DNA of 64,000 nt, from NCBI GenBank assembly GCA_030265395.1, contig JARFYF010000118.1:24765277-24829276 (forward strand), in the 5' to 3' direction. Of the stretch, positions 358 to 58,861 are shown piece by piece. The notes under the pieces were generated by a model. That model did not search any database. It worked only from the letters and a program-made list of their open reading frames with translations, and had not been told where the DNA came from. Source of the DNA: Rhina ancylostomus. Taxonomy: Eukaryota. A program made the position numbers and the translations under genes. Position 1 is the first letter of the stretch. Every line of letters begins with the position of its first letter.

Positions 358-455
358 AAAGAATCAGAATCTGGTTTATTATCACTGACTTGTACATTGT
401 GAAATTTGTTGTTTTGTGGCAGGAGTACAGTGCAAAGACACAAAATTCTATAAAT
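358..455 (-). mobile_element. 3' tail of a non-LTR retroelement (agaatc-tailed)
   Basis: gaatcagaatctggtttattatcac... is a reverse-oriented AATAAA plus short tandem tail, with the same layout as the tail at about 56620. Confidence 0.45.
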
Positions 456-493
456 TACAAAATGATCCCCTTATTTCTTTCTTGGTACCACAG

Positions 494-705
494 GTTTGTA
501 AACAGCTTTGTGTATTATGGATTGTGCTTCAATGTTGAAAGTTTTGGCAAGAATATTTATCTAACGAATTTCATCTTTGGACTGGTGGAAATCCTCCGTG
601 TTTCTTGCATTTGGCTCTTGGCGAAGTTTGGTCGAAAAAAATGTCAAGGTTATTTCCTGTTGCTTGGTGGTGTCGCATGCCTCCTCATATTGGCTTTTCC
701 AGAAG
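494..705 (+). CDS. SLC22A13: SLC22 organic anion transporter, internal exon (TM7-TM9 region)
   Basis: Acceptor cacag|G and donor GAAG|gtagg. Encodes (W)FVNSFVYYGLCFNVESFGKNIYLTNFIFGLVEI...KFGRKK...LLGG, which are SLC22 signature motifs. The symbol rests on similarity plus XIRP1 linkage (human 3p22), so it is best read as SLC22A13-like. Confidence 0.85.
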
Positions 706-949
706 GTAGGAGTGAAGTCAATGAGTGGTGGAGCAAAGAGTATTCTGTTATTTGTAATCCAGGATGGCCCTTTCATATCTATCATTCCTCTGCTGTCTCT
801 TTGAAAGAATCATACAGTTAGTTCCATACCTCCTGTCTTTCTCCAAAGCCCCCACGACTGCTTCCTTTTCATTGATTCCTTTAAAAAGTTACTACTGGCT
901 CTGTTTCCACAACTATTCTTATCGCAGTGGGAGAGAAATGTAACTCCAC

Positions 950-1040
950 TGTGTAATGAATTAACCGGTACGAACGGTATGCAAGACAAGTTTTTCACTG
1001 TCTCTCGGTACAAGTGACAACAATAAACCAATACCAATGT
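950..1040 (+). mobile_element. 3' tail of a LINE (Rex/Babar-like)
   Basis: tgtaatgaa...tatgcaagacaagtttttcactgt...ggtaca.gtgacaa.aataaaccaat is the reverse complement of the element end at about 56620-56700. Confidence 0.55.
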
Positions 1041-2275
1041 AACACATGACATTGAAAATATCTGATTCAATAATTTTAATGGTTTATCACATGAATAATA
1101 GAATTAGAGGCTGGAAGCTAATAAAATCATTCATAGAATCTTTGAAATGTATAACTTGGAAGGAAGCCCCATGGCCCATTTCTCTCAATACTGGCTGGAG
1201 AAACAGCTGTGAATACTAATCCCACTTTTCAGCTCTCACTCTGTAGCTTTGTCATTTGTGGCTTTTTGGGCGCTTCTTTGATACATGATAAATGTTCTGA
1301 AGTTTCTGCTCCAGTGAGTACTGACATTCACCACTTATGTGATATTATTTTTTTTCGATTCACTTCTAATCCTTTTATGAACTTGTATCTACATCTAATT
1401 ATTAAACTTTCTGCTCGGGGTAGTAATTCTTTTCAATTCAGCCTGTCCAGTCCTCTCATAATTTCCCCCAGGTCTATAGTGTATATTTTTCTTGTAACTA
1501 ATGTTATTCAGTCCTGGCAAAATCCACAAATCCTCTCTAAGCTCTCTCTTATAATATCACATTCTTCCAGTGGTCAGAAGTGTAAACAGTACTTTAGTTG
1601 CAATGTGACTAGTTAAAATGATTTATGTAGAGAAGAATAGATATCTGAGAATGGGTTGCAGGCTGGAATCTAACAAAGGCATTCAGGTAATTTCTATATA
1701 AAATGATGGTTGAGGAAAAATGGCAGTTAATTAATAGCTATTGCATTTACAACGAAATATTACACAACCCATATGCACAAATCTAAGGCAGTTGCATGAG
1801 GGCATACTAGTTTCCCTAATCAAAGGAGATGTATACAGGTAATGATTGTAAGCTACTGAGCTCCATGAAGAGAATAATGCTGAGCATTTTATGCACTGCA
1901 CAGAAATGAGAGTGAGACTGGTATTAGATAACTTGAAATTTGAGAGAATGGAATTGGAGACCAGGAACCAGAGTAAACTGAACAATAGTAGAATTTGAAA
2001 TGGATGGGGAAGTGACAACACGGATGCTTCTCAAGGTGGGTTATCTTCCAGATCATTCACTCTCCCTTCACCTTTCAAGTTTGTCCTTTTAACTTCACAC
2101 TTTTTGAATGTAAAGGAGCAACTTTGTTTCAATAGGTCAGAAATCTCAGTAGCAATGACCATAAATGGAAAATCAGGGACATGTTAAGCACAAAATAACT
2201 GGGGAAAACGGTCTCTTTGAAGAACAAAGCATGTCAAAAAGGAACCCTTCCATTAATATCTGTTCTTTGTTTCAG

Positions 2276-2384
2276 GAATGGCTCTGGAAGTCACTGTGCT
2301 TGCTGTCCTTGCAAAATTATCAATGTCGTGCTCCTTCTCAGTGACTTATGTCTATTCTACTGAGTTATTCCCAACTGTGGTCAG
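2276..2384 (+). CDS. SLC22A13: SLC22 transporter internal exon (109 nt; TM10 plus ELFPTVVR motif)
   Basis: Acceptor ttgtttcag|G and donor CAG|gtatga. Encodes GMALEVTVLAVLAKLSMSCSFSVTYVYSTELFPTVVR. Phase matches both neighbouring exons. Confidence 0.92.
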
Positions 2385-2989
2385 GTATGATGGATTGGAA
2401 AGAGTGCCATGCGATGAACTGTGTGAAATCTTATATATTTATGCTGGAATGTTTCATCCATCTGTTGCACCTCTATATCAAGCGTTCACAGATCATGCAC
2501 AGCATGCGTGAAATGTAGAGAGCAGTTTGCAACAACTTGCCTCTAACATAGTGTGAGCACAGTTTGTATTATATCTCTCTTACTGTACTTATAATACAGG
2601 ACCAATAATGAAGCTGAGTTAATATCCACCATGAAGATTTGAATTTGATTTCAAGTTGTGAAGTGAAAAGCCATTATCAGGAAAAGTGACCACAAAACCT
2701 TGTGCACAAATGATCTCAAGGTACAAGTCTACCTTCTTTCACATGAAGTGGCCTGTACTGAACACGAACCCACACCCATGCCAAAATGGCTGACTGTTAA
2801 ATAACCTCTAAAGAGGTTGACTGAACTATAGAGTTCCCGCACCACTTTTTCTTGGCAAATAGTGGGTGGTAGTAAATGTCAGGAGCATCTACATCCAATA
2901 AAGATGTGTAAAAAAAAAACAAAAAGCTTGTTGTCAGCAAGTAAAGGTCATGCTCGAAAGACTGGCTATGGGTCAGGATTTTCACTGAA

Positions 2990-3170
2990 AATCAAAAGAC
3001 TACAGATTCTGAGAAACTGAAATAAAAACAAACTGCCAAAAGGCTAGGCAACATTCTGTGGTGAGAGTAACAAAGTTAATCTTGCATCAACATTGACTGG
3101 AAAATGTCACTGTTTTTCTCTCCATGGAGCCGACTGTTTCTTAGACTTTCATTGTCTGAAGTTCTGGCAC
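2990..3170 (-). mobile_element. Penelope-like terminal fragment (degenerate)
   Basis: Resembles the copies at 26745 and 35175 in both orientations (aactgaaataaaaaca...ggctaggcaacattctgtgg; gaaaatgtcactgtttttctctccat). Confidence 0.35.
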
Positions 3171-3784
3171 TTTCTCATCAGTGTAATATTAAAATGGCAT
3201 TTTGTGTCTTGGTATCAGAGTGGTAATGGATGGCAAGTGATGGGCTACGTGAGGAATAAGAGAATCGTGGAGGAAGGTGGAATTGAGATAAGCAAGGCTT
3301 GAAGGCCTGAATGACCTAATCCTTCTACTATTACATTTTATCATTCATATTGAAGCTTGTTTATTAATCACATCAATTGTTTTTACCAACATGTGAGCAA
3401 ATAGTTTTTTTTCCAATTGCTTTACTTCTCCCTACTTTTCCTCATTGGCATGTCAAGATATTTCACTGGATTTTGAACCACAATGAAGCCCATTTTCACA
3501 GTTCTTTTATTCCTTCCAACCTGTGACACCAATGGTCAAGCCATGAAGCAGTAAGTATAGAAGAGTAAGTAACTTAGCAACTAAACTCCAAAGTTCCAAA
3601 GAGAATAAATTGTGTGCATTTGTTGGTGCGCTTTGGTATATTGCGTGGCCTCACTGTAATTGACATGTATGGTGATGGAAAAAACTTGTTCTTAATAAAT
3701 GATTGTTAGCCATAAAAATGAATGGTATATGAGGAATGGATTGTATTGCTGGCAGGTTTATAGTTCTTTCTTTTGCTGATGCAG

Positions 3785-3994
3785 GCAGAGTGGTATTGGT
3801 TTGGTGTCCATGTTTGCTCGGTTAGGTGGCATCATCGCTCCCATGATCATGATTTTGGAACAGGACTACCCAGGCATCTCCTTGATCTTATTTGGAATCA
3901 CATCAATAATCGCCAGTGCTCTGAGTCTCCTGCTGCCAGAAACTGCCAACAAAGAACTACCAGATGACACTGGGCAAGTTGGAAATGTTAAAAA
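3785..3994 (+). CDS. SLC22A13: SLC22 transporter penultimate exon (TM11-TM12, LLLPET motif)
   Basis: Acceptor gatgcag|G. Encodes RQSGIGLVSMFARLGGIIAP...LLLPETANKELPDDT. Probable donor AA|gttagt at 3995. The terminal exon was not securely identified. Confidence 0.88.
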
Positions 3995-5479
3995 GTTAGT
4001 ACTGTTTTATTTAAGCTATAGCGCAATTCCTAATCTTTGGATGCCTCAAAAATTCTGTGTACTTCTATGGTGTAATCTGTTGTCTATCGGAGATGACTAA
4101 CACTTGTCTTGGTTGAATGTCTTAATCAAAAGAGAGCACTCAGCAGGTGTTGACCTCCCCAAATATTGCACTGCAATGAATTGTAATCTTTCAATTCTGA
4201 AAGAGAATCGGCAACTGACAAACCACACTGGACTTGTTGCATGGCAATCCTGAGCTATTCACTTTTCTTCCTCAAGAATGTGAGGTGCTGGTTTGATCCA
4301 CCCTTGTTTTTCCCGTGGAAGTTCCATTTTGGAATATGGCTGTTAACTAAGATGACACACTAGTTCAGGGCCAAGAGGATCCTCTCCAGTCAGAGGTTGT
4401 TCCTTGTTGCCATCAGCCACCACCAGAGAAAACAGATTAATTAATGACCAATTTCACCCACAATTGAGATCCTTAATTGTTTTTTGCCAATAAGTGAGAA
4501 AATATTTGGAGCCCTCAATCCCCACTGATGTACAATTGGTCCTCTTTTGAAACACGCGTCAACCCCAAGTATTGCCAATCCCATTCTTCCTTCCCTCTTC
4601 TGTCCTGCCAGTCCCAGCTTTTCTTTCCTTGCTCTCCAATCGCTATCAACCTCATTCCCCTGCTCCTAATACCCACACAAAACTGCGCTATTATCTTGCT
4701 CTCAGTCCCAACCCTTCTTGACGCAGCACAAGCCCATTCAAGCTGCTAATCTCTGGAGCTCAACGTTGGAAGTGAGAATTAAGTGGCATTTCTTCAACTC
4801 AAAATGTGCAACACCTTTGTACTTGAATCGGTCATTGACTTACTATTACAGTTTCATATTAGAGCACCCATGAATTAGAATTTCTAGGCATGTAATTTTT
4901 GACTCTGCTACCATTAAAAAGAAAGGAAACCCCATGAAAGAATATTTGGCAGGTGAATGCACACCTGCAGGTCAGAGAACTTCCTCACTTGGATAGAGGG
5001 TGTTTTTGCAAAGGAAGATGTGATGTCAGGCCGAACTTCCCCATGCTATAATTACTAATTATCAATCTAGTGTGTATGTAAAAAAAAAAGTTTTACTTAA
5101 AGGAGTTGAGTTTGCACTCTGGACAATTAGGGCACAGATTATACCCATTTTGAGAACTTTGAGTTTCAGTGAAATGTATTTGCATATCATGAATTGCAAA
5201 TTACGTCACAAGCCAGCACAATTGCANNNNNNNNNNNTAAAGCCAGAAGATTTTGCTTCACAACAGTTTCCTTGATACATGTTCAATTTGATTAATATAG
5301 CTGAAAATTGTATTATAAATAAGTACATTTTAATCCATTGCTTGTGAGTAACCTTATTTTAAGTTACCAAAATAGTTTGAAAATGAACAGGAACAAAAAG
5401 TGCAAGATATATCAAGGTACAAAAGCCTGTTCCTTGAAAAAAAATTAAAGAATATTACAGTCAAAAGCTTTTAAAATGT

Positions 5480-5552
5480 TTTATTAATGTCCTTGTTCCC
5501 CAATGAATCAATTTAACTTTTAAAACTATTTTAAAGACACACAAAATTTATT
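5480..5552 (-). terminator. Candidate distal poly(A) signals of XIRP1 (after the LIM-type terminal exon)
   Basis: Two minus-strand AATAAA (5480-5485, 5547-5552) in AT-rich, UTR-like sequence between the convergent genes. Confidence 0.3.
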
Positions 5553-6894
5553 AAATTAGTTGTAACTCACAATGGTGATACATTTATGCTTGGAATTGCA
5601 CCTGTTTTGTGGGCAGGGCTGATCTCTAATACAATTTTTAAACATTGCAAAAGATTGGAGAAGCTTGATTTGTGCTTAAAATATTTTCTCTTAAATCTCT
5701 GTGCTATGTCAATTTCAGGTAAATTATCCCAACAGAAAGTAATCAACAGTAGCTCCAGGCACATTTTATTTCTTTCATCCCAAAAGGAAAGGACTGTCAT
5801 TGTTAGGTGAAGGAATGATTTCCACAAGGTAACCAGCATCTATCATCAGTATAGAAGAGAAGTCCCACTAGATTATCCCAAAAATATGTGTATTGTTGAC
5901 AACATCAAAGTGTTGCCATCCTTCAGCTCCTAAACCTGAAATTAGTTTAGGATATCTATTTTGCTGGAGTCACATGGCACATGTTGTCTTTTACCAAGTA
6001 TCAAGGTCACCAGAGAAGATATTCAACCTACTAATGTTGGTAGAATGCAAAACTCTGTTTAGAGCACCACTGATCTATTAATGGCTTTAGTATAAAGTTG
6101 CTCAATGGCTTTATTTTATCTCTAGGGAAGTGAATGGTAAGAGTGATGTAGAAAATGCATACCATCAGTCTGCAGCGGATGCTGGCAACTTCACTAAGAG
6201 CACAAGAATGTGACACAACATGTCATTGAAGAATGGCCCGAATTTGAGCAATGCTGACTATCGTCTATTTGGAATTGCTGAGCTCTCCTCTGCATTTTAA
6301 CTTGTAGCTTGTATTCATTTGCAGGAAACTATATATCAGTACTGTCAAAAGAAAAATTGGGTAAAGAACTTGGCTTTTTAAAGATTATTGAATAATTCTG
6401 TGTTGGTGATTTGAACACAGGATGAGCCATCAGAGTCAGGTACAACAAATCAAAGGAGTTGTTTATTTTACGTGACTGAAAATGCCCAATGTGTAATTTG
6501 AATATGGTGGTGTTTTGTTTCTTTGTTTTTAAGGCAAAAAATAGACAGCCATGTAATGTATAAGAATGTATCCCTGGGATTTTATAAGCATACTACTGAT
6601 AGTCCATCTGATGGGATTTCAAGTAGAGCATGCATTTGTCTCAATGCTTCACCTAATGCATAGAAACACAACTTTATAAAATAATGGCAGACTCTATTTG
6701 AAGGAAAAGATTAAAAAGGAAGTGATTTAACAATCTTGGATTCTTGTTTCATATTTGGGGTAGTCCCTTACACTTTCCCTATTGCTCCAAAGTCTCATAT
6801 AAAATGTGAAGCTGCTTCACAAAGTTTCCTCAAGTTTTGTTAATGGGAAGTAATGTCATAAAGTTCTGATTTTCTACTTTTCACCAATGTCCAA

Positions 6895-7243
6895 CCCTAA
6901 TGGGGTTTATAAAATTATGATGGGCATAAATAGGGGAGATAGTCTTCTTCCAAGAGTAGGAGCATCTAAGTCTAGAGGACATAGGTTTAAGGTGTGAGGG
7001 AAAATATTAAAAGGAGATCTGAGTGATATGTTTTTCAAACGGAAAGCTGCCAGAGGAGGTGGTAGAGGCAGGTACAATCACACGTTTTTTTGGACAGGTA
7101 TATGGATAGGATAGATGGGAAAGGAATAGAGGGATATGAGCCAAATGCAGGAAAATGGGATTAGTGTAGGTAGGCATTTTGGTTGGCATGGACGAGTCGG
7201 GCGGAAGGGCCTCTTTTCCCCCCCGTACCAATCTATGACTCTA
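6895..7243 (+). mobile_element. CR1 LINE 3' end
   Basis: tataaaattatga...ggacataggtttaaggtg...gaggtggtagaggcaggtaca...ctatgactcta terminal repeat. Confidence 0.85.
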
Positions 7244-7244
7244 A

Positions 7245-9666
7245 ATCTGGTTTGTCTTTTTACTGTGCACAATAAAGGCCAATGGCTTCTAAAGGTTTAA
7301 ATCTGGTTGTTTTCAAATAATCACCTCTTTATAAATACCAGGCCTGATTTCAAATTATGTCTGCTTGAAGATAAAATAGACCAAAAAAGGAATGCTAGAG
7401 AAATCAACCTGAGCAAGACATCAGACAAATATTATGCACCTTTCCAAAGAAATCCCATCATATTCCTGGATACTCTGGTAAGAATATTGTCTTCAATAAC
7501 TTTAGACTTCAGCTATTTCCTCCATTTTCTTTTACTGTGAGCATTGCTGGCGACAGTCTCTCCACACTTGCAAGGGAAGGGGGAGTTATACTTCTGGATT
7601 GCACAAGGCCCCCCATCAGAACATAACAGAGGTGGTGCTGTGTTCATTAACATGAACTACTTCTGAAAGTTCTGCTGGAGGTACAACTGCTTTTGTTTTG
7701 TTCTTGTTCAATTCTGCCACCCATCTGAGAATTGGGTTTGTTTGAATTTGCAGTCTCTAATGTTGATTTCTTGAAGATCTTTTTGTTGTCTGAAACAAGT
7801 TAGAAAATGAACTTTTACTGATTCATGATGATTCTTCTAGTTCCATGTCCCATTGTCTTCCCAGAAGAATTATTTATGTCAATGAGATCCAGTACGTTGG
7901 ATTTCATTTTAATTCTAAAACATTAAGACTCCTACAATTATTCACTCTTCAGTGAATAAAATGGTAATTTTATCATCTTCATCTTTATTCACTACTGAAA
8001 ACCTCATCTTATATTTGATTGTAATCTTTACAATTCCCTCCTATTCTGTATATTTCTTTTCATAATTTGGTCTTCTTCAGAATTCCTTCTTATTTTCTTG
8101 GTATAAAACATTAGGAAATTGGAATTGGTGCATATCTGTGTTCCAATATATTCATTATGAAGGTTCATTCTTTGAGTATTGATTAAGTGGCTCCATGGAG
8201 TTGGCAGGTATCTATAATACCTGCAGCTTGTTCAGTCGTAACACTGATTCATGTGGAAATATCCTCATGTTCCATCTTGATGAATTCTTCATCTCCTTTA
8301 TCTTTTTTGGAAGATTTGCCATCTAACTATTCATAATGATTGCCCGTGGTTAGCAAATCATGGGATTCAGTACTTTCATTGGCCTCTTTGAATCTGATTG
8401 AGTCTAGGCAATATGGTGTTACAGCAAATTCAAGGAGCTGGCTCTCTGCAGTTGAAATTGATTCTTTCTTCTGCAAGTCATCAATGCTCCTATCTACTGT
8501 CTTGTCAGTAAACAAATGTATGATTGACTGAATTAATTGCCCTTGCAGCTTTTCTATTGTTCCTTTCAGTTTGGAAAAGTTAAACTTTTCTCGATTAGGG
8601 CTATTGACATTATGAAACTCAGATTTCAGTGACCCTGTTTCTCATTCGTAGATCTTTCCTGGTTGAGAGAAGCTGGGCTTTTATTCATATTCCTCTTTTC
8701 AAAATTATGTTCAAACATTTATTTCAGTTCTTTTGAGAGTCTGTTTTCCATCATCAGTTTTTGCTTATGGAGATATTTGAACCCTTTATTTGTCTAAATG
8801 AAATTCTTTAGTCACTGCTATTTTGTTTGGTTCATTTGCTTCATGCTGTTCCAATTCTCATTTTCATTTAATTTCTCTGCAATGCTTAATGCAGATTTTA
8901 CCATCAACAATTTAAAGCTCCTTTTTTCTGTATCTCTGTGTACTTCTGAAAAGCGGTCAGGCCTTTTGCTCACATAATTATCTCTAAATGCAAATCCCTT
9001 TAGTTTGTCCATTTTGCTATTTACTACTGATCACAGGGTGCAGTGACATCACCCCACTTTTGTTCCATAAGACTTGGGTTCTTGGTGCCTGTTTTCATTT
9101 CAGATCCCCGGACATGGGGTCTGCCCTTTTAGTTCATCTGCAATGATTTCATGTTCTCTGTGTTTGAACAGTCCTTGTGAGTGGGTTGATGTGTTTCCTT
9201 CCCTCCTCCTCTTACCCAAATGAATTGATTTAAAGAGTTGTGCATTTCTCTACATGAATGAAGTTATTCAGATTTAGAAGATTTGAGGGGTGCCATACTT
9301 CTCTAGTCTGCTGTTTTTGGGGGAGGCCAGCTAACTCTGAGCTTTGCTATTGGCACTGACCTTGTACTGTCCTCCATACCAGATTTACTTCTTTCAGCAG
9401 CCTCAGAAATCCTGCCCACACCTTCCAAGTTGGATTGCACGGCACTAGGTACAAGGTCTAATTTCCCTTTTGCATCTTCTAAGTTACCATTTTCCTCAAT
9501 TTGTACATTATTTTCAGCTTGGCTGCAATTAGCACTCTTTGATAGCAAAAGCTCTTCACGAAGATTAAGGTCAAAGTCTCCAACGTAATTGTGTTTCACC
9601 TTGCATTGGCTGTCATAGTGAGCCCTGCAATAAAATTCATCCTGCACTGGCACAAAGTTAAGGAGG
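7245..9666 (-). pseudogene. XIRP1: Disrupted LIM-domain/EPLIN-like terminal exon of XIRP1 (open 9666-9303, then stops and frameshifts)
   Basis: Acceptor ttcttcttttacag|C (phase 2). (S)LLNFVPVQDEFYCRAHYDSQCKVKHNY resembles the second LIM half of XIRP2/LIMA1 (SLGNYASLHGEFYCKPHF..LFKSKGNY). It is followed by KLRVSWPPP, TAG at 9305-9303, then LKSSKSE* where LKMSKPKW is expected. The lower boundary is uncertain. Confidence 0.7.
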
Positions 9667-10462
9667 CTGTAAAAGAAGAACAATACCTTACATCACAACA
9701 AGGAAAGTAGACTGTTAGGTCATGTAGTGTTAATTAAATACAGCTTATTAAAGTTAACACATATTGGGAATCAGAACCATTGGTTCTAACCTGGCCTGCT
9801 GTGGCTTAAGGATAATTCTGGTTGGATGCCCAATTAATGCGTTATCTAATTTTATTCTTCATCAGCTTCAGTTGAGATTAAAATTGGTTTGAGTATAAAA
9901 CTGGCATCAGACCTGACTCTTCCTATTAAGGTTAAAATTAGAGCTGGAATATCTAATATAATTGAATTTGAGATATGTAAGAGGGACACCAGCCTTCTCC
10001 AGGTAGACGCTGAGGTTGGTGGAAATAACAGCAGTTATATGAGTCTTATCATTGACATCCACATGCAGTGGATGAGGAAGAGATAGCCACTGGCCTTCCC
10101 TGTAGAAGGACATTGTGTTCAGGGTAGAAACATGAGAAAAAAACATCAATACCTTCTTATATTTAAAAAAAACATTTCCACTGACAAACTGTCCAATTTA
10201 TTACCTGTGTGCCATTGTGTCGCAAGTTGCATCATTGAGTTTTTGACACTTAAGTCCTTTCACAACAATGCTGTTGCTCCTTTAAGAGCTATTTAGTATA
10301 TTATCAAATATTTGGTCATAATCTTGCAAGGATAGAGACAGGGAGCATATGAAATTTGTATTAAAATTAAGACAATTTTATTGGAATGATTTGAAATTAG
10401 ACAATAATAAAAATAACATTGCAGGTTAATGATAAAATCAATGCTATTTTTAAAAACACTCA

Positions 10463-10594
<132 letters not shown>

Positions 10595-10884
10595 CTAATA
10601 CAAGATCTTTGTAAGTAGCATACACCTAATGACCTCTGCCCTTAGAATTAGCTAAGATTTATAACTTCTCCCTTATATGTCGTAACATAATCCTTGACTC
10701 AAACCCAACCGAACGAGGCAGGATCATGTTTTCAGGACTGGGAATCATGTTTTTGTACAAAGCTGCCACTTTCTGTTCCACAACCATACCTCTTTTTATC
10801 TAATTTACTTCTTGTAGGTTGGTAGGTGGGTTTTCATATATGTGGCAGCCCTGTGAGTTGTCAGTCTTCATCTTTGAGCCAGGA

Positions 10885-11050
10885 AAATAGGTCCCAAACT
10901 ATCCACACACCTGTCCCATCAAGCAACTCCTGTTCCACTTGTGGCAGAGTCTGCACCTCTCAGATTGGCCTCATCTGTCACCTCAGAAGCCACAGAACAG
11001 GAGAGGAGGCAAATCATCCTCAATCCTAAGCGGCTGTTTGAGGAGGAGGA
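10885..11050 (+). mobile_element. RTE-clade LINE 3' end
   Basis: Translates as CSTCGRVCTSQIGLICHLRSH (RTE C-terminal C2H2-like motif), followed by a short 3' UTR and a gaggag tail. Confidence 0.7.
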
Positions 11051-14903: not shown

Positions 14904-17900
14904 CTAAGATCTCTTTGCTGAATTGGGGTTTCCAAAAGAAAGAAACACTACTCCATTTTCTTCGATGTTGGGTTGTGAATCTTCAGCTGCCCTTGTCTGG
15001 TTCTGCAGATGTCTATTAAGACGGGGCGAAGTAACAACATCATACCTGGGTGGTGCTTGAACTACTTCATATGTTGATGAGGTTGTTGACTCAGATTGCT
15101 TTGTGACAGTGGTTGAGGTTTTTGATGTGATAATTTTATTCCCAAAACGATCAATTTCTTCATATTTTTCCATGATGGTCTTTGTACCAACTATTTCACC
15201 TCCATCAGGCCCTGTCTTGAACTCCACAACACTTTTGCTTCTCTGAGGGACTGGGCTCTGAGTCCTGTCAACAATGTTGCTTTTAAATCCACTTAAGGAG
15301 ATGCATCCTGTAGGTGAGTTGGCTATGCTGTCACTGGCTTTGACATTGTTGCTTTCCTTTCTGTTTGTTTGAATGTACTCATTGTTGAAATCTCTTTGCA
15401 CAAACTCCTTTCTTGGCACAGACTGTTGTTTTGCTGCCTCAGTTTGTTTGCTGGCACACTTGTATCCATTGCAAAGAAATGAATCTTCAAAGGTTGTCAC
15501 TTTTGCAGAACAGGATGGAACAGCTTGACCTTGAGAAGGTGAGATAGACTCCATCTCAAGTTGTGAGCCAGACAATGTTTTTTTCAAAGGATCTGCAGGT
15601 TTTCTAACTGCTGATTCAATGGAAATGTAGGAGGGAGATGATGGAGAGCTCACACGGGCGGAAACAGATGGAATATCTAATGATGGCCCAGCTTGCTTCT
15701 GTGACTTTTCTAACCATTCTTTGTGAACCCGATCTTCTTTCAATTGCCTGGCCTTTTCTGAGCTTGACTTGCTGGAGACCAGACTGATTTTCTTAATATT
15801 GCCAGAGGTGGAGTTTGAGGCAGCTCCCAGTGACTCTCCAAATAGACCAGATAGTCCGGCAATATCAGACTCTGATTTCAGATTGGAAACCGAATACAGA
15901 GCTTTTTTAATGGATTCTTCAATGTGTAACAACTTTGCCAATGTCTGCTCTTTCAGATAGGTTATCTCTGCACTTGCCCTTTCAAGGTCTTCAAACACAT
16001 GTTCCACCGAAGACAAACTTTCTACTTCATCTTTGAACTCTCTAGGCTGATTCTGCATCTCATCCTTCCGGCTGTCAATTGGTTTAAGTTGTTTTACCAC
16101 ATTGTTCTTAGTCACCACCCACACAGGCACATTCTCAAATAAACTCTTCAGACCTTTCACATCAACTTTAAAAGTTTCCTCTTCAAACTCCTTAACTCTA
16201 GTCAATATTTTCGGCAATTCTTCTCGTTTCTTTAGGTTTTCAAAGATCTCCATTGCTGCCTTCACATTTCCTCGCATTATCTCCTCCTTGTGAACAGATA
16301 ACCTTTTCCTGCGATCATCTTCTGTCTCTTTACATTGCTGTCGGTCTCCTCGCATTACAACTGCATCTGGTTGTGGGGTGCGCTGCTGCTCTTTGTCCAA
16401 TAATACTTGTTGGTCATTTGTAGCTGATACTTGGTTATTAAACCCATGCTGGTTGGGGCACCTGTGACATTGGGCAGTCTGACACTCTGATTGTTCAAAA
16501 GAAGCTTTGACCAGCTGTTGGTGGTGCGACTCTGCACATGTTTGAGGCTGTTGGTAACCTTTTGGGGCAGTGATCCTGGCTGAGGATTTTGGTGACGCAG
16601 TTTTAACTTTCTTTGGTAAACTAGATCTCTCCCCTGTCATGATTAGATTCTGATCTGGGCTGTTTGGCTCGCCCATTTGAGGAGAATTTGATTTGCTTTG
16701 GGTACTAAATGTTTGAAGAGCAGATCTGCATTCCTGAAATTCAGTTCTTGCTGTGCTTTCTTTTGAATAAGACTGCATGAATCCCTGGACTTCTGCTGCA
16801 TTCAGTTTGTTTGGTACCATTTCTGGTTCTCTCGTCATTGAGACATTGGGATCATCAAGGCTTACAGAGGAGTTTCTTCCTCTCTGGTACATTTCTTGTG
16901 ATGATGTATCTGGTGTTGGCCTGGTTACCATTACGTTTAACTTGCTGTGCCCTTCCTTTCCTTGCTTGTATTTCTCCTCTGCCAACTGCAAGGGGGTTTT
17001 CATCACCTTGGTGTAAGAAGCCATTGTGGTGGATTTTTCTCCCAATTGAAGCTGTTCATGTTGCCTTTCTAACTGCATGTTCTGACATCCTGAAGGATTA
17101 GTGGCTTCTGCAGGAAGTGATGCCCTGATAGGTTTTACTAGAGGTGACTTGCACACAACAGGAGGTAATGGGTTTGATTTAGACGTGACTGACGCATGGT
17201 TTCTTGGTGGAGTAGGTGGACTCGGAACAGCACGGATTGCTTGCAAATGTTCAGGCTTTGGAGGCAGAGTAGGTTTCCCACCCTGCATTGGCAAGTGCCT
17301 GGCAGGGATGGCAGGTGGCTTTGGTGCAACAGATGGTTTAGACGCGATGTTTTGTTCCTGCACCTTGNNNNNNAGTAGTGGAGGAAACTGAGAAGGTGGT
17401 GGATTTTTCACTGCAGATGAACTCAGCTGACTTAAAGGAAAGGGGCTGCCTGCCACAGGCAGATGACCACAAGCTTCGTTCGACGGTGCAGTGGACTTTG
17501 TCACTGGAACTGGAGAAGGAAACTCAGCATCAGACTGTGGTAGCGAAATCTGATTACAAACAGTTCTAACACCACTCTTCTTTTGGTCACGTGAATACGA
17601 CTGGCCTGCTGCTCTATATATCATGGCAGCTTTAAAATCACCTTTGGATACGTTCATATTAGCTTTTCCTAGGGATTGGAGAGCTGCCTGCAAATTACCT
17701 TGGACCACCTCCTCTTTCTCGACCGATTTTTGCTCTGTTACTGAATCCTTTAAAGCCTCTATGGTTGATTTTACATCTCCCTTGACAATTATCTCCTGAT
17801 CTGCCACTGCCCGATCTTCCTTCTCTAAGATATTGGACGAGTGCTGACCATGAGCCTGCACTTGTTCTGAGGCAGCTCTTATTTCACCTCTGCTGTTCTT

Positions 17901-20900
17901 AACTACGTCAGTTAAATGTTCACATTTCTGACTTTCATTAGAGCAGGCCACAAATGACTTAAGTCCTTGTGTTCCCTCAGAGGCACTGACCTGAAGAGTA
18001 TTCTGTTGGCTCTTTGGTTGTTGGTACTGAGTGACAGTCACTTGGGTACTTGCTTGGTGTCTTGAAGCTGTGCTGCTTCGCTGTCGTGTGGAGATTTGTA
18101 TGTTTTTCTTCACTTCTTTCTCCAGTGTGTTCCTGCATTGAATGCCTTGGTGATGATGTTGCTCAGTTTCTGCCATGCTCTCTGTATTACTCCTGAAATG
18201 TTCTTGCATGCTAGAGTTCTGTTGTATGCTACGCGCTTCAGCAGTAACTTCTCTGAGGTTCTCCATTGCTGCCTGAAGGTCCTGGCCAGAGGCATTTGCT
18301 GCACCCACCTCAGAAACTGCAAAGGAGGCGTCACCTGATGAGCAAAAATCAGGCTCTGTACACTCTCTTATTCTCACTCCCTTCTTATCACACGTTGATT
18401 CCTGCAATGCAGCCAGTGTGTCCTTCACATTGCCGCAAAGAACATCCTCCTGATCTGGCTTTTTTGTTTGGTATTTTGCCTTCTCCGGCGGCTGCAGCTT
18501 GGTCTTAACGTCACCAGGCACAATATCATCTTTCACTCCCACATTCACAGCTTGTCCCAGGGTCTGGTCAGCAGAACTGATGTCACCACCCAATACACCA
18601 TCTTTCTGAGCAATACCTGGGCTTTTCTGTGCTTCTGTCAAGAAGTACTTCTTTGTTCCTTTGACATCACCTGGTATAATATCATCAACTGTCTTTTCAA
18701 TTTGGGCTCTACTCTCTGTCAGATTCCTGATGGCACCTTCTACATCACCACGTACAATCTCCTCTTTCTGAGAGGAAATATCAGGATCATCAGAATCCTC
18801 CTGATTGCCTTTGCCTTTGAGATAGTCCAATGTCCCTGATTCAATACACGTTGTGTAAAGTTGTACATTTCCTCTCTCATTTTCCTCACGTTTTATTGTT
18901 GATGTTGTTTGCTGCTGAGTTGAAGCAAGAAGACTATTAATTGTTGACTTTACATCTCCTTTGATTGTCTCAATTTCAGCCTCCTTATTTTGGGGACAGT
19001 TAACTAGAGAATATATGGTAATCTGAGCAATTCCTTTGTCAGTTTCCTGAATCAAAATCCCTTGTTTGATTTTACTATCCTCCATTAAGAAGCTATAAAT
19101 TGCATGAGTACTTTCTTCTTTAACAAATTCTTCATTAATATTAACTTCTGACTGTGAGAAAAGCTGAATCTTACTTGTAGAAATCCTTCCACTTTCATCT
19201 TCCTTCAGCACAATACCTTCAGAATGAAGGGATTCCTTTCTTTGAAGTAACTGCATCAGGATTCTCTGCAAGTTGCCACCAATAACCTCTTCCTTTAGAA
19301 TGTGTGGATCATTCTGACTCACCAGTTGATATTTGGCCATTTTTAGAATGCCTGTTGCACTCGATTCAATAATAAGTCCCCTTGACTTGATGGCTCCACA
19401 GCTTATGAGGGTTTCCAAGCTTGCATGGATACTTTGTTTTGTCATCTTGGAACTTTCTGTGCTACATTGTGCATGAATGAATGTGTCCAAGGGTGTTGTC
19501 TCAAACAACCACGTTGTCGTCTTTACGTCTGTGCACATCACTTCTTCCTTGGTTTCTTTGCCAATTGAACTGTCTGAATCTTTTAGGCTGTCCAATGGTT
19601 GGGACTCAAACAACCAAGTGCATCTCTTCACATCTCCCTTCTGTATATCTTCTCGTTGGACTGTTGTTGTACCTGTACTTTCTTCAGTTTCTCCTTTCAA
19701 GGAGTCAATGGGCAGGTTTTCAAACAGCCAAGTTGATGTCCTGACATCTCCACTCTGAACATCACTGACACTAACCATCCTCACATATCTCTGGTTTGCC
19801 TGTTGCCCTTCAAAGAGTCGCTTGTTTGCTTGGACATCACCCCCCTGGATCTCATCCACCACTTTTATTCCTGGTTGGGCTTCATCTCTGATTGAATCCA
19901 AAGGCTGGGTCTCAAATTTCCATCGAGCAGCTGTCACATCTCCTGTGTGCATGTCCTCCTGTGTGACAGCTCTAATCACAAATACTTCGTCCAGTGGCCT
20001 GATCGTGTCCAATGGTTTTGTTTCAAAGAGCCACCTAGTTCCTCTTACATCGCCCTTCATGATTTCCTCCTTCTTTGCTGTAGTAACTTCATGATATTGG
20101 CCTTCCTTATCTCTAAGGGCGTAGAGGGGTTGTGTTTCAAACAGCATGGTGCATGACTTCACATCACCCTTGGCAACCGTTTCTTCCTTTCTTGAACTGA
20201 AGTCCTTTATATCAGTTTCCTCTTTTATTTGGTCCAGTGAATAGGTCTCAAAAACAAACCTTTTGCCACCAACATCACCCCCCTTTACATCAGTAATTGT
20301 ACTCTTAGGTATTGCTTCTTCTGGCGTTTCTTTAATGGAGCTAATTGGGCAGTTTTCAAAGAGCCAAGTGAACTTGTGTACACAACCTGATCCTGGCTGC
20401 GGGGAGTCCATTTGTGTGGATGTGAAGCTCTGCCTCTTTTCTTCTACATCACCTATTTCACTGAGTGAAGTGCTCTGATAAATTTCTTTCACTCTTGATA
20501 CATTTCCGGACTGGACGTCCACCTCACTTGTGTACCTCATGTTCTGAGCCTCATCTAATTTCCCAGCAATATTTCCAAATTGTTCTGTTTCAAACAGATG
20601 TTTTTTAGTCTTCACATCGACCCCTTTAACATCATCCATTTGCATGCTGCAGACTTTCAGATGTTGTTCTTCATTCTCATTAATGCTGTCCAGCGTTTGT
20701 GTTTCAAAAAGCCAGGTATATGATTTGACATCACCTTTTGGTTGCACTTCAGAATCCTGCTTAGCTTCGACTTTTTCATACAAGGCATTCATAGGCTGTG
20801 TTTCAAACAGCCACCTACATGTCTTCACATCACCTTTCAGTAAATCTTCCTTTTCAGAGGTCTGAATTTCTGTTTTGTTGACATTAGCATGTATGACATC

Positions 20901-22730
20901 AAGGGGCTGTGTTTCAAATAGCCATCTTGTTGTCTCCGTGTTGTTGGCTTGGATCTCCTCTTTCGTGATGCCTTTAACCAATTCCACATTTTGTGTACTC
21001 TCATCAAATTGATCCAGGCGGCGGGTTTCAAACATCCACTTGTAGTGTTTGACATCACCGCTAATGACTTGCTCACGGCTTACTGTTTTGACTTGATGGC
21101 AGTGACCTGCACCATCCATGATAGCATAAAGGGGGACAGTTTCAAAGAGCACTCTGTTCTCGTTTACATTTCCAGCCAAGACTTCATGATTCTCAGTTGA
21201 GATGTCATCTGAATTTTTAATACTGTCAAGGGGAAGTGTTTCAAAGAGATTTTTGTAAGCTTTAACATCTCCCTTCTGAATCTCCAGTACTCTGGTGCTA
21301 TTGGAAGTCTCACTTTGTTCCTTGTTGATACTGTCTAGAGAGTAGCTTTCAAACACATGAGCCTTATGCTTCACATCTCCCCTTTCCTCTTCCGTCATAA
21401 CTTTTTTCAAGTGGCCAACTTCAAAGCTGTCTTTCAAAATTTCCATTGGCTGAGTCTCAAACAACCAAAGAGTAGAGTTCACGTTACCTCCAATTATTTG
21501 TTCCTTGGCAACCTCTTCAGATGGACTTTCTTTTAATGAGTCAAGAGGCTGAGTTTCAAAGAGCCAGCATTTCTTATTCACATCTCCTCCTTCTATTACT
21601 CTGACACTGGCTTTACTGTCTGCCTCCTCTGTCTGCTCGTTGATGGTATCCAAGGCCTGTGTCTCAAAGAGCCATCGTTTTTTGCCAACGCCGCCACCCT
21701 GTTGGGTCTCTTCCAGGGAGATGCCACGAATGATTTTCACTCTTGAGAGATCTCTGTTAATGCTGCTGAGGGGTTGTNNNNNNNNNNNNNNNNNNNNNNN
21801 NNNNNNNNNNNNNNNNNNNNNNNNNNNNNNNNNNNNNNNNNNNNNNNNNNNNNNNNNNNNNNNNNNNNNNNNNNNNNNNNNNNNNNNNNNNNNNNNNNNN
21901 NNNNNNNNNNNNNNNNNNNNNNNNNNNNNNNNNNNNNNNNNNNCTTCTGAACGCAGTTGCAATAAGCTGCTTTCTTCCATCGAGTTGCTCCGTCCCAAGT
22001 CACCCAATGGATGAGTCTCAAATAATAATTTGGTTCCTCTGACATCCCCTTTCTGTACAGGTTCCTTCAGAACTGCTTCTTGTAGATCATTCTCCTTGGA
22101 GTAGATTTTATTCAGGGAATCCATAGGCTGGGTTTCAAACAACCACAAAGCTGTGCGGACATCACCCTTTGTTTGTTCTTTTCCAATGCTGGAATTTGCA
22201 GAAAATTCTGAGTACTGGGAGCTAATATCATTTATTGTTTGGTTTTCAAACTTCCATGATGTGCTCCTCACGTCTCCACTGAGGATGGCCTCTTCTTCCT
22301 TCATCTTCTTAGTTGCTTGGTGATCTCCAATTGTGTCCAATGGCCAGTTATCAAATATCCAACGCATGGACTGGACCTCACTTTGAAGTGCTGCATCACT
22401 GTTGCCACGGACTCCAGTTGCTAAGGCAGCAGCCGTATGTTCAGCGTCCAGTACTTCGGCCCAATCCTCAGTGACCACCTCCTGCAAATTTTTCCTCAGC
22501 TCCGGGTGCATGTGCTTATAAAGCCTCTTCAATTCATTAATTTGTCGTTGCTGGTGGAACTTGACAAAAGTCTGATGTGGAGGGGGTGGGATTTTTTGAG
22601 GCTGCTCTTTCATTGTTATGTTTGGCTTAGTAGAAGCTTCAAGCAGATCAGGTGGCGGTGGTGGTAAAAAATCATCCTCCGCAGTCTGACTCATTTCTGA
22701 TGTTTGGATCCTATCCAAGTTTTGAGCCAT
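14904..22730 (-). CDS. XIRP1: Xin actin-binding repeat-containing protein 1, giant coding exon (2608 aa from the ATG at 22730)
   Basis: Acceptor ttttactaaag|ATGGCT. The N-terminus has FLPPPPP (EVH1 ligand) and [26 protein letters not shown] as in XIRP1. There are 25 visible GDVxxxxWLFETxPLD Xin repeats, a Pro-rich region and conserved C-terminal blocks. Two N gaps (21778-21943, about 17370) preserve the frame. Confidence 0.95.
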
Positions 22731-23019: not shown

Positions 23020-23312
23020 TCATAGAGTCAGACAACACAGAAACAGGCCCTTCAACCCAATGTCTCCACCTCGACCACCGACTCATCCTACTTCATTCTC
23101 CTCTCATTCTCATCAACTCCCCCAGATCAACTCATCAATTCCCCCACCACTCACATACATCCTAAGGGCAATTTACCTAGCAAGCCACACATCTTTGGGA
23201 TGTGGTCAGAAGCCAGGAGCACCAGGAGGAAACCCACATGGTCATAGGGACAATGTGCGGATGCCACAGAGACTGGGTGTTTGAGCTGCAGTTCTACTAG
23301 CTGTGCTGCCCC
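23020..23312 (-). mobile_element. tRNA-derived SINE (V-SINE-like core, CR1-type tail)
   Basis: tctttgggatgtgg...ggagcacc..gaggaaacccac..ggtca core and catagagtca...gaaacaggcccttc tail. Confidence 0.75.
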
Positions 23313-24250: not shown

Positions 24251-26744
24251 AAACAGAATGCGTCAGGGAGTAGCTGTGGAGAGAGAAAGAGAGTTGATGT
24301 TACGGGTCAATGATCAGTCAACATTCTAATGGATTTATCAGCCAGAATAGTGAAGGTCATTGACCTGATATGTTAGTTCTGTTTCTCTTTTCACAAATGC
24401 TGCCTGACCTGTAATGTTTTTGCAAATAGTGTGATTCAGTTTGGAGCAGTCATCCAGACGAGGGATGGGGTTAATGCACATGGAATGAAGTTTGTGACTC
24501 CTATCAAAGATGAAGACAATGGTTTGGGTTTTCCCTAAAAATTTAGTATTAACTAATTCTTTAAACTATATGTTTCACATTTTGGGAATTTAATGCTGGT
24601 GTCATCTGGCCTTTTCAAAAATGTGTGGCTGGTCTTCGTGTTTAGAATTCTCAAATCCTCTGCTAGCACTTTTGCATTGATAATATACCAGAATCTTCTC
24701 ACACCAAAGCAAAGGTAGCCTAAAATATCACTGGTAGTTGCTGATGCAAGTTCAACTGATCCAGCAATAGATTAGTGTCATTATTTGCTTAAAAACTGAC
24801 AGAATGCTTGGATCTGTTGGCTTTGACCAACTTTTTTTTTCACTGCTTCAGCTTTCCAGTCCAGCTAAGTGGCAAACCTAGGACACCTCCACTGCTGTAT
24901 TCCTCATCTACCTGCAGGGCCAGTGCCAGCTTAGCCTGGCACAAGTTCAGCAGACTCCTTAACATCCATGGGAAAAAGTTGTGGCAGCTAGCACATTAAG
25001 CAGAAGTTAATCTCCTTGATCCAGCTGATTTAATTATACATAAGTTTGATCATTTGTGAGTGTCAATAAATGCTTTTTATTAAAAATAATTTGTTTTATA
25101 ATTCCACCTTAATTTTATTTTTCACTTGTGCCTGAATGATTTGGGGTGATAGCGTTAATGGCTGCTTAGCCTGGAGATCGGGCCTTGCCAGGTTTCACAG
25201 TTATCTGGGTTTGAGCTGGAAATCTAGGCTTGAGAGGCTCTGTACTATGCAGGTCTCTCCAACTAACCAGGAGCAGGACTCCCAGTGGAACACCATGCCA
25301 AGGAGCATGTTTCAAGGGCAGGTGAACAGTGACCTTGGGTAGCTTGCCAGTCAGTGGGATTCCCCTCCCCAATATGTGTCTGCAACACTGTTAGAACACA
25401 ATTAGAAAGCTGGTGTCAATAGCCTTTTGGATCACAATAATCTCCCATTCTTTTAAAATATTGTTAATTAAATTACTGCAAATGTCACATATAAACATAA
25501 ACACACACTCACAAAAGTGTTGATACTTCCAACTCAAAAGTACACTAAAATTGCACACCATTTTGCATTAAGACCACATCATCTTTTGCATTAGTAGTCA
25601 GCATGTTATCATGTTTTGTCCAGCAAAAGGACAGGCAATAGAGCGTCCTTCTCAACTTGAATAGTATCAAAAAAAGATCATTGGAACATCACTAGGGTGA
25701 GGAACTGGTGAATGTTGATTTTATTACAGAGAGGGAGAGTGCAATATTAACATGATGAATTAAGAGCATTTCACAAGGTCTTTTTTAACTCTTGGTCACT
25801 GGTTTTCTCGTTGTACTGAATGGCAGCAATGACACAGACNNNNNNNNNNAATGGACCTAACTGCATTAACCACTAGCCAAAAATTAAGATTGGATACATT
25901 TTTTCTGGTGGAGGTTAAAGTGAAACAGTGATAGATTTTAAATTTTAAAAGAAGTGGCAATATAGTACCCACTGAGAACTGCCAAACTCATTTCATGAGT
26001 TTGATGTTACAGGTTATTAGTTACTGAATGCTGGACTTACAGATCCCAAAGGTATTCTTAATGGACAGTCTTAAAGATCAATAGTAATATAAAATCTAAA
26101 TTTTAAGTTTGTCTTCCTATAGGCAATATTAAACAATCAAGACACAAAATATTCATCCAAAAATGAATCTCTGTGGTTCCGATGTTTACGAGAATTGTTA
26201 AACATGAAAATGGAAGAAAGCAAATTGGTGTGGTGAACAACATTAACCCTCCTGTCCTGAAGTTCTGGGTAATAATAAGAGAGGATGGAAATATCGAAGA
26301 GGAACTCTGGAAGAGGAGGAAGAATGATCACTGATAGGAAATGGTTGCGCAATGCTGTGAGAGCCCCTCTTTGATAGAGCATTAGCAGATGTGACAACTG
26401 GGTGGCTACTGTGGGAGCTACTAAAAAGTGGAAACTACTGGAAGCCAAATTTAGGCAGGAAATAAACTAAAGTGTTGAGCACTCAGACAGTTGCAAAGCA
26501 ATCAATTTCAGTGGCATCAAACGCATCCATTTACCTCTATCTGCTGAGACTCTTTTGCTGCTTGTGGAGTACTGTCTTGAGAAGAAATAGTCTAAATTAA
26601 ATCAAAAACATTTCATAATTTAGAAAAGAACATCTTTCATAAGCCTGTTGAAAACACAGAAAGCCTATACAGACATAACCTACAGAGCAAACATTCTCAT
26701 TTTCATTAAACAATGGTTAGATCAAAAACAGAGCACTGCATTCT

Positions 26745-31852: not shown

Positions 31853-31986
31853 ATACTTCACTGAGGGGTCTGCTTCAGATTTAGACAGATATATAGCTGA
31901 CCTCTCTCTGACAGAGATGACCTCTTGTTCTAGCAGTGGCTGGTTATTTCTCTTTGGCGTCCTTGGATACAATAACCTCTCCTCAT
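31853..31986 (-). CDS. XIRP1: XIRP1 long-isoform upstream coding exon (134 nt, phase 1 to 0)
   Basis: Acceptor cctttccttttgcag|AT and donor TAT|gtgagt. Encodes (D)EERLLYPRTPKRNNQPLLEQEVISVRERSAIYLSKSEADPSVKY, with an EPLIN/XIRP2-like SVKERMAxYQ motif. In frame with both neighbours. Confidence 0.72.
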
Positions 31987-49534: not shown

Positions 49535-50055
49535 TTAGACCATAAGACACAGGAGCAGAATTGGGCCATTCGGCCCATCGAGTCTGCTCCGCCATTTGAT
49601 CATGGCTGATATATTTTTCCCTCTCAACCCCATCCTCCTGCTCTGTCCCCATAACCTTTGACATCCTTACAATTAAAGAATCTATTAACCTCCGCTTTAA
49701 ATATACCCAATGACCTGGCCTCCACAGCCATCTGTGGCAATGAATTTTACAGCTTCACCACCATCTGGCTAAAGAAATTCCTCCTCATCTCTGTTCTAAG
49801 GTGACATCCTCCTATTCTGATGCTGTGCCCCCTGGTCCTAGACTCTCCCACTACTGGAATCATCCTCTCCATGTCCACTCTATCCAGGCCTTTCAATATT
49901 CGGTAGGTTTCAATGAACTCCCTGCTGATCCTTCTAAACTCCAGAGAGCACAGGTCCAGAGCCATTAAACATTCCTCATACATTAACCCTTTCATTCCTG
50001 GGATCATTCTTGTAAACCTCCTCTGGACCCTCTCCAATGCCAGCACATCCTTCCT
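49535..50055 (-). mobile_element. Young CR1 LINE 3' end (continues into an N gap)
   Basis: ORF 50046-49747 reads LALERVQRRFTRMIPGMKGL.YEE...RTRGHS...RRNFFSQ, followed by a 3' UTR hairpin region. Confidence 0.92.
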
Positions 50056-51127
50056 NNNNNNNNNNNNNNNNNNNNNNNNNNNNNNNNNNNNNNNNNNNNN
50101 NNNNNNNNNNNNNNNNNNNNNNNNNNNNNNNNNNNNNNNNNNNNNNNNNNNNNNNNNNNNNNNNNNNNNNNNNNNNNNNNNNNNNNNNNNNNNNNNNNNN
50201 NNNNNNNNNNNNNNNNNNNNNNNNNNNNNNNNNNNNNNNNNNNNNNNNNNNNNNNNNNNNNNNNNNNNNNNNNNNNNNNNNNNNNNNNNNNNNNNNNNNN
50301 NNNNNNNNNNNNNNNNNNNNNNNNNNNNNNNNNNNNNNNNNNNNNNNNNNNNNNNNNNNNNNNNNNNNNNNNNNNNNNNNNNNNNNNNNNNNNNNNNNNN
50401 NNNNNNNNNNNNNNNNNNNNNNNNNNNNNNNNNNNNNNNNNNNNNNNNNNNNNNNNNNNNNNNNNNNNNNNNNNNNNNNNNNNNNNNNNNNNNNNNNNNN
50501 NNNNNNNNNNNNNNNNNNNNNNNNNNNNNNNNNNNNNNNNNNNNNNNNNNNNNNNNNNNNNNNNNNNNNNNNNNNNNNNNNNNNNNNNNNNNNNNNNNNN
50601 NNNNNNNNNNNNNNNNNNNNNNNNNNNNNNNNNNNNNNNNNNNNNNNNNNNNNNNNNNNNNNNNNNNNNNNNNNNNNNNNNNAATATCCCACCTTGGTAT
50701 GGTGGGGGGGGGGGGGTGAGACAGCTAAGCCCCTTCAGAAAAGAGACTAAAGTAATTAAGTAAATTAGTCTTTGTATTATAGGTTGAAATAGCATAATGT
50801 CCCTAAAGTGAGGGTACTAATATAAACTACAAGACTTAAAGTCTTTGCTTAAGTTTAAGTTTAGGACTCTAGAATGGGTACATTCTATATCATCACAGTC
50901 CTTCATCTTCCTGTCACAGTTTTGGTTGAAGCAATGTCCTGCAATAGCATTTATAATGTGTCTCTTTCTTGCCACCTCCATTCAAGATGGAAAGGCCCAT
51001 GTCTTTCCTCTCAGTCCTCTGAAAATTGGGTGATTTTCCTTATGAGTTGGCTTTGCCTCATGCCAGTGAGCTACAGTCTCTAACATACCCATGCTCTGCA
51101 TTTGATATTGCTTCAGCTGCTACATAC

Positions 51128-51206
51128 CCAGCTCTTCCTTTGGCATTGCTGGATATTGCTGTGGTTCTCCTTCTTCCGGCAGAAGCTTCTGATTCAATGT
51201 TGGTTC
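51128..51206 (-). CDS. XIRP1: XIRP1 long-isoform upstream coding exon (79 nt, phase 0 to 1)
   Basis: Acceptor tttctctgcccacgttgacag|GAA and donor CTGG|gtatgt. Encodes EPTLNQKLLPEEGEPQQYPAMPKEEL+G and exactly bridges the phases of the 55.4-kb and 31.9-kb exons. Confidence 0.65.
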
Positions 51207-58822: not shown

Positions 58823-58861
58823 CTCTTGTCTTTCCTCTGATTCTTGGCTTCTTAGATTCAT
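58823..58861 (-). CDS. XIRP1: Candidate first coding exon of the XIRP1 long isoform (MNLRSQESEERQE)
   Basis: Consensus donor GAG|gtgagt in phase 0, in frame with 55782. There is a possible acceptor ttctcacag| at 58874 and a TATAA-like motif at about 58915. Confidence 0.45.

Follow-up and report, generated by a model that had tools for sequence, protein, structure and literature searches.

Gene content of the window

The window, i.e. the whole stretch of 64,000 nucleotides of Rhina ancylostomus DNA that was analysed, carries on its minus strand exons of a Xin-repeat gene, including two exons that encode a LIM domain, the second of which is interrupted by stop codons. The largest coding block is a frame of 2,618 codons (22760-14904) with 19 Xin repeats (PF08043); the corresponding exon occupies 14904-22730 and has its own stop. 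Among the best 120 of 1,180 matches of this Xin exon, the named proteins are nearly all XIRP1 or XIRP1-like, and the top match of these 120 is a XIRP1-like protein of Pristis pectinata (89% over residues 1-600), followed by other rays and sharks, a ranking that fits a ray. Over the whole Xin exon, 2422 of 2600 residues are identical to Pristis. A separate Xin gene, XIRP2, is located on contig C1 of the same genome, with its own LIM exon and an open terminal exon of 482 codons of the EEQIKRNR type, and LIMA1-like and LIMD2-like loci are found on C81 and C58 (the names of these three loci are based on motif likeness and PDB matches). Judged by its sequence, the Xin exon is orthologous to XIRP1 rather than XIRP2, and the gene of the terminal exon is XIRP1, not XIRP2 or LIMA1, an assignment made from the best-scoring named matches and the presence of a separate XIRP2. 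The affinity to XIRP2 and LIMA1 proposed in the initial annotation of this DNA has to be given up, as both genes lie elsewhere in the genome. In the large exon of XIRP2 (C1:33135904-33136333), a tandem run of ∼13-codon units has more than one open frame.

With the gene models of Heptranchias and Heterodontus, six short upstream exons could be located. Exon 1, with the ATG, lies 336-451 bases past the window end, and exons 2 (58823-58874), 3 (55390-55782), 4 (51128-51206), 5 (31853-31986), and 6 (26535-26591) follow on the minus strand. Exon 6 has phase 0 at both ends, which allows in-frame splicing to the Xin exon as well as to the LIM exon (10464-10594). On the plus strand, exons of an SLC22 organic-ion transporter (360-4100 and beyond the window edge; best PDB matches SLC22A6, E 2e-8, and SLC22A12) run toward the 3′ end of XIRP1. 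High-copy interspersed repeats occur at 23020-23280, 10950-10990, and ∼7180-7245, with very high contig depth at the first two, and a repeat check of 5000-11000 gave no informative repeat. A retroelement remnant at 49750-50800 is mostly N-masked; from motif likeness, we take it to be reverse-transcriptase-like.

The terminal exon and its stops

The acceptor of the terminal exon (a pyrimidine tract followed by CAG, minus strand) extends to 9667; position 9666 is the first base of the exon, which begins in phase 2. Its open 5′ part (9306-9666) comprises 120 open codons (9665-9306) that encode the last Cys/His ligands of the LIM domain in a CxxH arrangement, an eroded EPLIN motif, a linker, and the sequence KLRVSWPPP. 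The frame is then closed by a TAG (9305-9303), and after 12 further codons by a TAA (9266-9264). The phase-2 acceptor, the ∼120 open codons, the CxxH ligands, KLRVSWPPP, and both stops had been described in the initial annotation and were confirmed. Both stops are present in the DNA, because a public sequencing run that is near-identical to the window and possibly from its source (X3) shows 0 differences over 9064-9482. They are also covered by runs of two relatives, organism A (X1/X2) and organism C (X4), with no difference at either stop. The stops are real and common to the window and these relatives, and the concern that reads might expose them as sequencing errors is thereby settled.

Two informative proteins were found by an HMMER search with P0122, the gene model of the horn shark Heterodontus, among the best 150 of 2,322 matches. 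P0130 is a 1,292-residue protein of the sawshark Pristiophorus, 76% identical to the LIM part of P0122, and P0172 is a 146-residue model of Pristis that ends at the same residue as the first stop of the window. P0130 matches the window in tblastn with an E value of 8e-49, and no locus in the genome matches it better than XIRP1 (E 6e-41). A P0130 alignment that allows for frameshifts extends from 9665 to 7649, through both stops and ∼1.65 kb beyond, with 69/120 identical residues before the TAG and 226/526 after it. It contains 9 frameshifts and 18 stops counting the first (16 opposite residues and 2 in an insertion), counts that are approximate near frameshifts. The TAG lies opposite an Arg codon, P0130 having D-R-R-S-M where the window has D-stop-R-S-M, and the alignment then continues for 526 further codons. 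The purine and A skew of coding sequence likewise continues from 9600 to 7500.

Measured against this intact orthologue, 9305-7649 is pseudogenised by stops and frameshifts, and no disabling lesions were found in 10594-10464 or 9666-9306 in this genome. The long C-terminal domain that follows the LIM domain in P0130 is cut at 9305; what remains of it, the decayed tail at 7649-9302 (minus strand), corresponds to about residues 170-772 of P0130 and is purine/A-rich like the Xin exon. The earlier proposal that homology continues in frame past both stops, which are lesions, was thus correct, but not in all its details. The second stop is not at a Trp position; it lies after SKSE of P0130, opposite Gln or Asp depending on gap placement, and P0130 has no second KPKWPP there (a second KPKWPP motif is seen in XIRP2 of this genome). 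The lesioned exon itself was properly located, but the interval given for it spans only the first 430 nt of a relic of ∼2 kb.

Against XIRP2 and LIMA1 of this genome, the genes to which an alignment had been suggested as a check, detectable homology stops at WPP. Scores as high as those of the DNA alignments to these genes were obtained in 245, 82, and 241 of 300 shuffles. Two readings of the decayed sequence were rejected: that the second stop derives from a KPKWPP motif, and that SEEDQIMKRN near 8080 is what remains of EEQIKRNR. Neither is significant against XIRP2/LIMA1, and P0130 aligns other residues at both places. An old shared natural C-terminus after WPP, where P0122 also ends, was rejected in view of P0130. 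Neither the window nor 10 kb on either side gave a match to the last 530 residues of P0130, which may still be present elsewhere in the genome, and the eel, lizard, and sturgeon tails gave no alignment to the DNA after the stop. A word-index comparison of the 120-residue exon translation with longer proteins scored 0/333 candidates, the same translation gave 0 matches in the PDB, and a search of the ESM Atlas with P0122 returned LIMA1-type clusters only. The repeat-like element at ∼7180-7245, which resembles the other two, sits just downstream of the end of the tail alignment.

The C-terminal W-x-D-D-L of P0130 recurs in teleost and sturgeon models, and four models that carry it (P0167, P0188, P0190, and P0282) also share the N-terminal motif, the LIM domain, and WPP, which suggests that the long LIM form of XIRP1 is likely ancestral. 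The intact tail of P0130 contains four LxxLKxxFE-like segments. D[LIV]F motifs are enriched in 4/7 tails tested (0/500 shuffles), more weakly in P0130, and the enrichment is absent in the lizard tail and in the XIRP2 tail of the ray. Motifs of this type can bind endocytic adaptors.

LIM domain and predicted short isoform

The terminal exon alone has no match to the Pfam LIM profile, because only the last part of the domain is encoded in it. The adjoining LIM exon (10594-10464, minus strand), which is open and has a phase-0 acceptor and a phase-2 GTGAGT donor, scores 26.2 bits against PF00412 (cut-off 22.9), so the profile match on which the initial annotation had made its LIM assignment depend is found one exon upstream. 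Its best matches among solved structures are LIMD2 (2lzu, E 7e-13) and EPLIN (2d8y, E 2.5e-12). The LIM exon, which supplies the first six zinc ligands, is joined to the terminal exon across a phase-2 intron whose position is shared with XIRP2, LIMA1, and LIMD2 of this genome, and all eight ligands (C-C-H-C-C-C-C-H) are present with LIM spacing across the two exons. The domain may fold and bind two zinc ions.

When the eight exons are joined without the Xin exon, an open frame of 441 residues results, with GT-AG at every intron; it is identical to the horn shark model P0122 at 235/436 residues. P0122 carries the LIM domain, has no Xin repeats, and uses the same junction between exon 6 and the LIM exon. 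This junction is in frame, as exon 6 ends and the LIM exon starts in phase 0, and we infer that the Xin exon is skipped in the predicted LIM form. The upstream exons themselves are no proof of such a short form, because models of Heptranchias, alligator, turtle, and bird splice them to the Xin exon. Four contig runs cover the introns with no splice joint and give no evidence on expression either way. This gene structure makes the terminal exon the final one in a predicted XIRP2-style LIM short form of XIRP1. A candidate lesion at the acceptor of the LIM exon, where a TAG stands in place of a Lys codon of the paralogues, was rejected, since P0122 has the same junction and takes the Lys from the previous exon. 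Within the Xin exon, at 17991/17990 (minus strand), a donor-like CAG/GTCAGT is found where isoform X2 of Cetorhinus XIRP1 (P0125) ends. Because this site shares phase 0 with the LIM exon, Xin repeats and LIM domain could be fused in frame, as in the eel (P0118) and lizard (P0086) models.

Tail and stub probably decayed at different times

The 495 coding nucleotides of the LIM exons before the first stop contain 0 lesions, where 8.1 would be expected from the lesion density of the tail (P 3e-4, or 0.011 if only 15 lesions are counted); therefore, the 441-residue stub outlived the tail. In simulations, 16-18 stops per 526 codons need a neutral divergence of ∼0.25-0.3 or more per site, several times the distance between the window and organism A (0.06-0.07). 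Organism A (X1/X2) carries four indels within 9060-9482, all of them downstream of the stop. The truncated functional tail that the initial annotation offered as its alternative is therefore in part true of the past: the stub kept its frame open for a much longer time than the tail did, but the stops that created it are lesions.

The stub now looks unconstrained and appears to change at about the neutral rate. Between the window and X1/X2, the 22 differences in 9306-9666 comprise 17 nonsynonymous and 5 synonymous changes, where 24-27% synonymous is the neutral expectation (40 of 593 rows and 17/18 differences of the covering contig were seen). For this one lineage with its 22 differences, the point estimate of omega is 1.07-1.26; a value of 0.3 is rejected (p under 0.01), and for 0.5 the rejection is borderline (p 0.045-0.09 if only the counts are used, 0.013 with the intron rate). 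The divergence of the stub (22/361, 6.1%) is close to that of introns (115/1674, 6.9%, five contigs; p 0.64) and exceeds that of the Xin exon (9/340, 2.6%; p 0.028), for which the control in X2 is a single 340-nt contig. In the comparison to P0172, 20/146 residues differ vs 178/2600 in the Xin exon (p 0.004). X1/X2 and P0172 count as one lineage, because the same 17 changes are found in both. Organism C (X4) has at least 5 nonsynonymous and 1 synonymous changes, a count that is exhaustive over 9306-9482 alone. One of its contigs, at depth 8, also has an extra base at 9347, upstream of WPP; the resulting frameshift removes only the last 14 codons.

Of 46 columns that are invariant in the three paralogues of this genome, the ray keeps 25 and the horn shark 37, and a relative-rate comparison gives 13 changes in the ray only vs 1 in the horn shark only (p 0.002; Xin-exon control 134 vs 120). 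The terminal exon of the ray retains 9/27 of the invariant columns, compared with 20/27 in the horn shark, and the respective values for the LIM exon are 16/19 and 17/19; the terminal exon, and not the LIM exon, is thus where columns were lost. Against an EPLIN-motif profile built from 105 matches chosen for an intact motif, with the three shark/ray XIRP1 rows excluded, the ray scores 11.8 bits, the horn shark 41.2, the sawshark 49.7, and the ray's own paralogues 51-59. The 22-residue motif after the LIM domain is thus homologous but eroded, and on sequence grounds the stub is EPLIN-class by descent and no longer by motif. Against relaxation stand the eight zinc ligands and every splice site, all intact, and the Pfam LIM score of the Pristis stub (26.6 bits) is close to that of the sawshark (26.8 bits). 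Moreover, 12/17 of the amino-acid changes map past codon 36 to the linker and tail, whose sequence possibly evolves fast even if functional. All protein comparators are automated gene models.

Probable loss of the LIM isoform

Taken together, a two-step loss of the LIM isoform of XIRP1, with a terminal exon whose tail is broken and whose head is probably in decay, is the probable explanation. In the first step, an old nonsense change would have removed ∼1,100 C-terminal residues, and the tail would have decayed as untranslated sequence, with the 441-residue stub remaining for some time under selection to stay open. In the second step, constraint on the stub would have relaxed, with a rate of change close to neutral, the disappearance of most of its EPLIN motif, and a frameshift in one relative as the outcome. 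We infer both this order (tail first, stub relaxed later) and the present loss of function. The Xin-repeat protein of the same gene is unaffected.

As the main alternative, the truncated 441-residue LIM protein could still be functional, and possibly favoured, in rays, with only the tail dispensable and the fast change of the stub reflecting relaxed or positive selection on a working protein; this is rather unlikely. Such a protein would account for the open frame with its canonical splice sites and 8/8 ligands, for the frame being open also in P0172 and in X1/X2, where the four indels fall after the stop, and for AATAAA sites located 500-620 nt after the stop. Tail-less forms also recur, as P0122 ends at a different terminus 6 residues past the same WPP and several teleost models of 364-403 residues end before WPP. 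However, the neutral-like dN/dS and divergence, the frameshift in X4, and the 11.8 bits of the EPLIN motif, compared with 41 in the equally truncated form of the horn shark, speak against continued function. Moreover, 3-37% of simulation runs leave the stub open at a neutral divergence of 0.06, and its openness in two close lineages needs no selection.

The opposite view, that the whole LIM form died with the first stop and the stub has stayed open by chance, is very improbable. Some open stretch is expected, as the open region is defined by the first stop, and recent evolution looks neutral. Nevertheless, from the lesion density of the tail, the 495 nt would be expected to carry 4.5-8 lesions, and simulated survival at the divergence of the tail (≥0.2 per site) is at most 0.07 without indels and <0.001 with indels; in addition, the splice sites have been preserved. 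Finally, the idea that the stops are sequencing errors or the natural ancestral C-terminus of cartilaginous fishes can be dismissed as hardly credible, since X3 and the two relatives agree on them and since P0130, although P0122 and P0172 both stop just after WPP, is open through this point and for 1,100 residues beyond, ending in W-x-D-D-L as in teleost and sturgeon models.

Under the two-step loss, the locus would record the loss of an isoform inside a living gene, in which one product is dismantled stepwise and the other is constrained, with an intact orthologue on which each lesion can be mapped. The decay itself is ordinary molecular evolution and does not in itself point to a phenotype. 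Should the stub still be produced, it would amount to a tail-less LIM protein of the EPLIN class. The locus indicates that XIRP1 had the same two-protein layout as XIRP2, and the layout therefore likely predates the duplication that gave XIRP1 and XIRP2; it also suggests that sharks and bony fishes have a long LIM protein that is so far unstudied. In a more speculative and, in our estimate, unlikely extension, XIRP1 of jawed vertebrates would ancestrally encode a second protein of ∼1,200-1,550 residues, with an EPLIN-type LIM domain, WPP, repeated LxxLKxxFE, and an acidic tail rich in DPF/NPF/D[LIV]F and ending in WxDDLL, that would have been cut independently, within a few codons of each other, in rays and horn sharks because a LIM stub without the tail was advantageous. 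In that case, the truncation seen in the ray exon would have been adaptive, with loss coming after it, and the exon would stand partway toward the single-exon XIRP1 described in mammals.

The literature listings examined contained no paper that describes a LIM form of XIRP1 or the decay of such a form; a prior mention elsewhere is possible. The words LIM, exon, and shark do not occur in the main text of the study of Xin evolution by Grosskurth et al. (PMC2478706), and the accessible parts of PMC3810769 and PMC7709239 contain nothing on a LIM form of XIRP1. As far as the accessible text of the literature goes, the LIM short form is treated as specific to XIRP2, being needed there to repair the stereocilia of hair cells, and XIRP1 is described as a single large exon. 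The exons themselves are already in databases, in gene models under names separate from XIRP1.

Comparison with known systems

The same exons are found in models of Heterodontus (P0122, 445 residues), Pristis (P0172, 146 residues), Pristiophorus (P0130, 1,292 residues), and Labrus (P0167, 1,233 residues), and in models of Synaphobranchus (P0118) and Phrynocephalus (P0086). P0172 has the same stop as the window, whereas P0130 has an intact tail and P0122 a different end. These automated models have names such as ‘LIMA1-like’, ‘LIM domain-containing’, or ‘uncharacterized’, not XIRP1; their linkage to XIRP1 is direct for P0118 and P0086 only, in which the exons are fused with Xin repeats, indirect for P0122 and P0172, and by sequence similarity for P0130 and P0167. 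The end of P0122 is probably an independent truncation, two or three codons from that of the ray. Its N-V-F-R-Q, six residues past WPP, would correspond to a one-base frameshift of the sawshark N-V-L-D-R, judged from the protein sequences, and both the ray and P0122 are without 11 residues that the sawshark has after WPP. Five teleost proteins of 369-403 residues (P0147, P0155, P0213, P0226, and P0277) have an XIRP1-type N-terminus and a LIM domain, without WPP, tail, or Xin repeats; they are called ‘LIM domain-containing’ or ‘uncharacterized’ where looked up and are possibly short forms or duplicated xirp1 copies.

Within the EPLIN class (LIMA1, XIRP2, and LIMD2), as set out in the accessible text of Koch et al. 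(PMC3305314), a single LIM domain is directly followed by the EPLIN motif, the conserved 22 residues that define the class. The ray stub has the same single LIM domain followed by a homologue of this motif, but the motif is heavily eroded, and XIRP1 is not named among the class members in that text. The closest parallel is the short isoform of XIRP2 in mouse and in zebrafish xirp2a/b (PMC10259482, PMC3280289), which has the same short 5′ exons and skippable Xin exon, and the same phase-2 intron that splits the LIM domain over two exons, followed by WPP and a long terminal exon. In the accessible text of PMC3280289, xirp1 is described as one large exon with intraexonic splicing, next to a XIRP2 short form of matching layout. 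In the ray, however, the gene is the paralogue XIRP1, and the tail is destroyed. According to the accessible text of PMC10259482, it is the isolated tail of mouse short XIRP2, not its LIM domain, that goes to strained actin. The XIRP1 tail of sawshark and teleosts has no significant match to the XIRP2 tail past WPP and ends in W-x-D-D-L instead of EEQIKRNR, so this role is not simply transferable to it.
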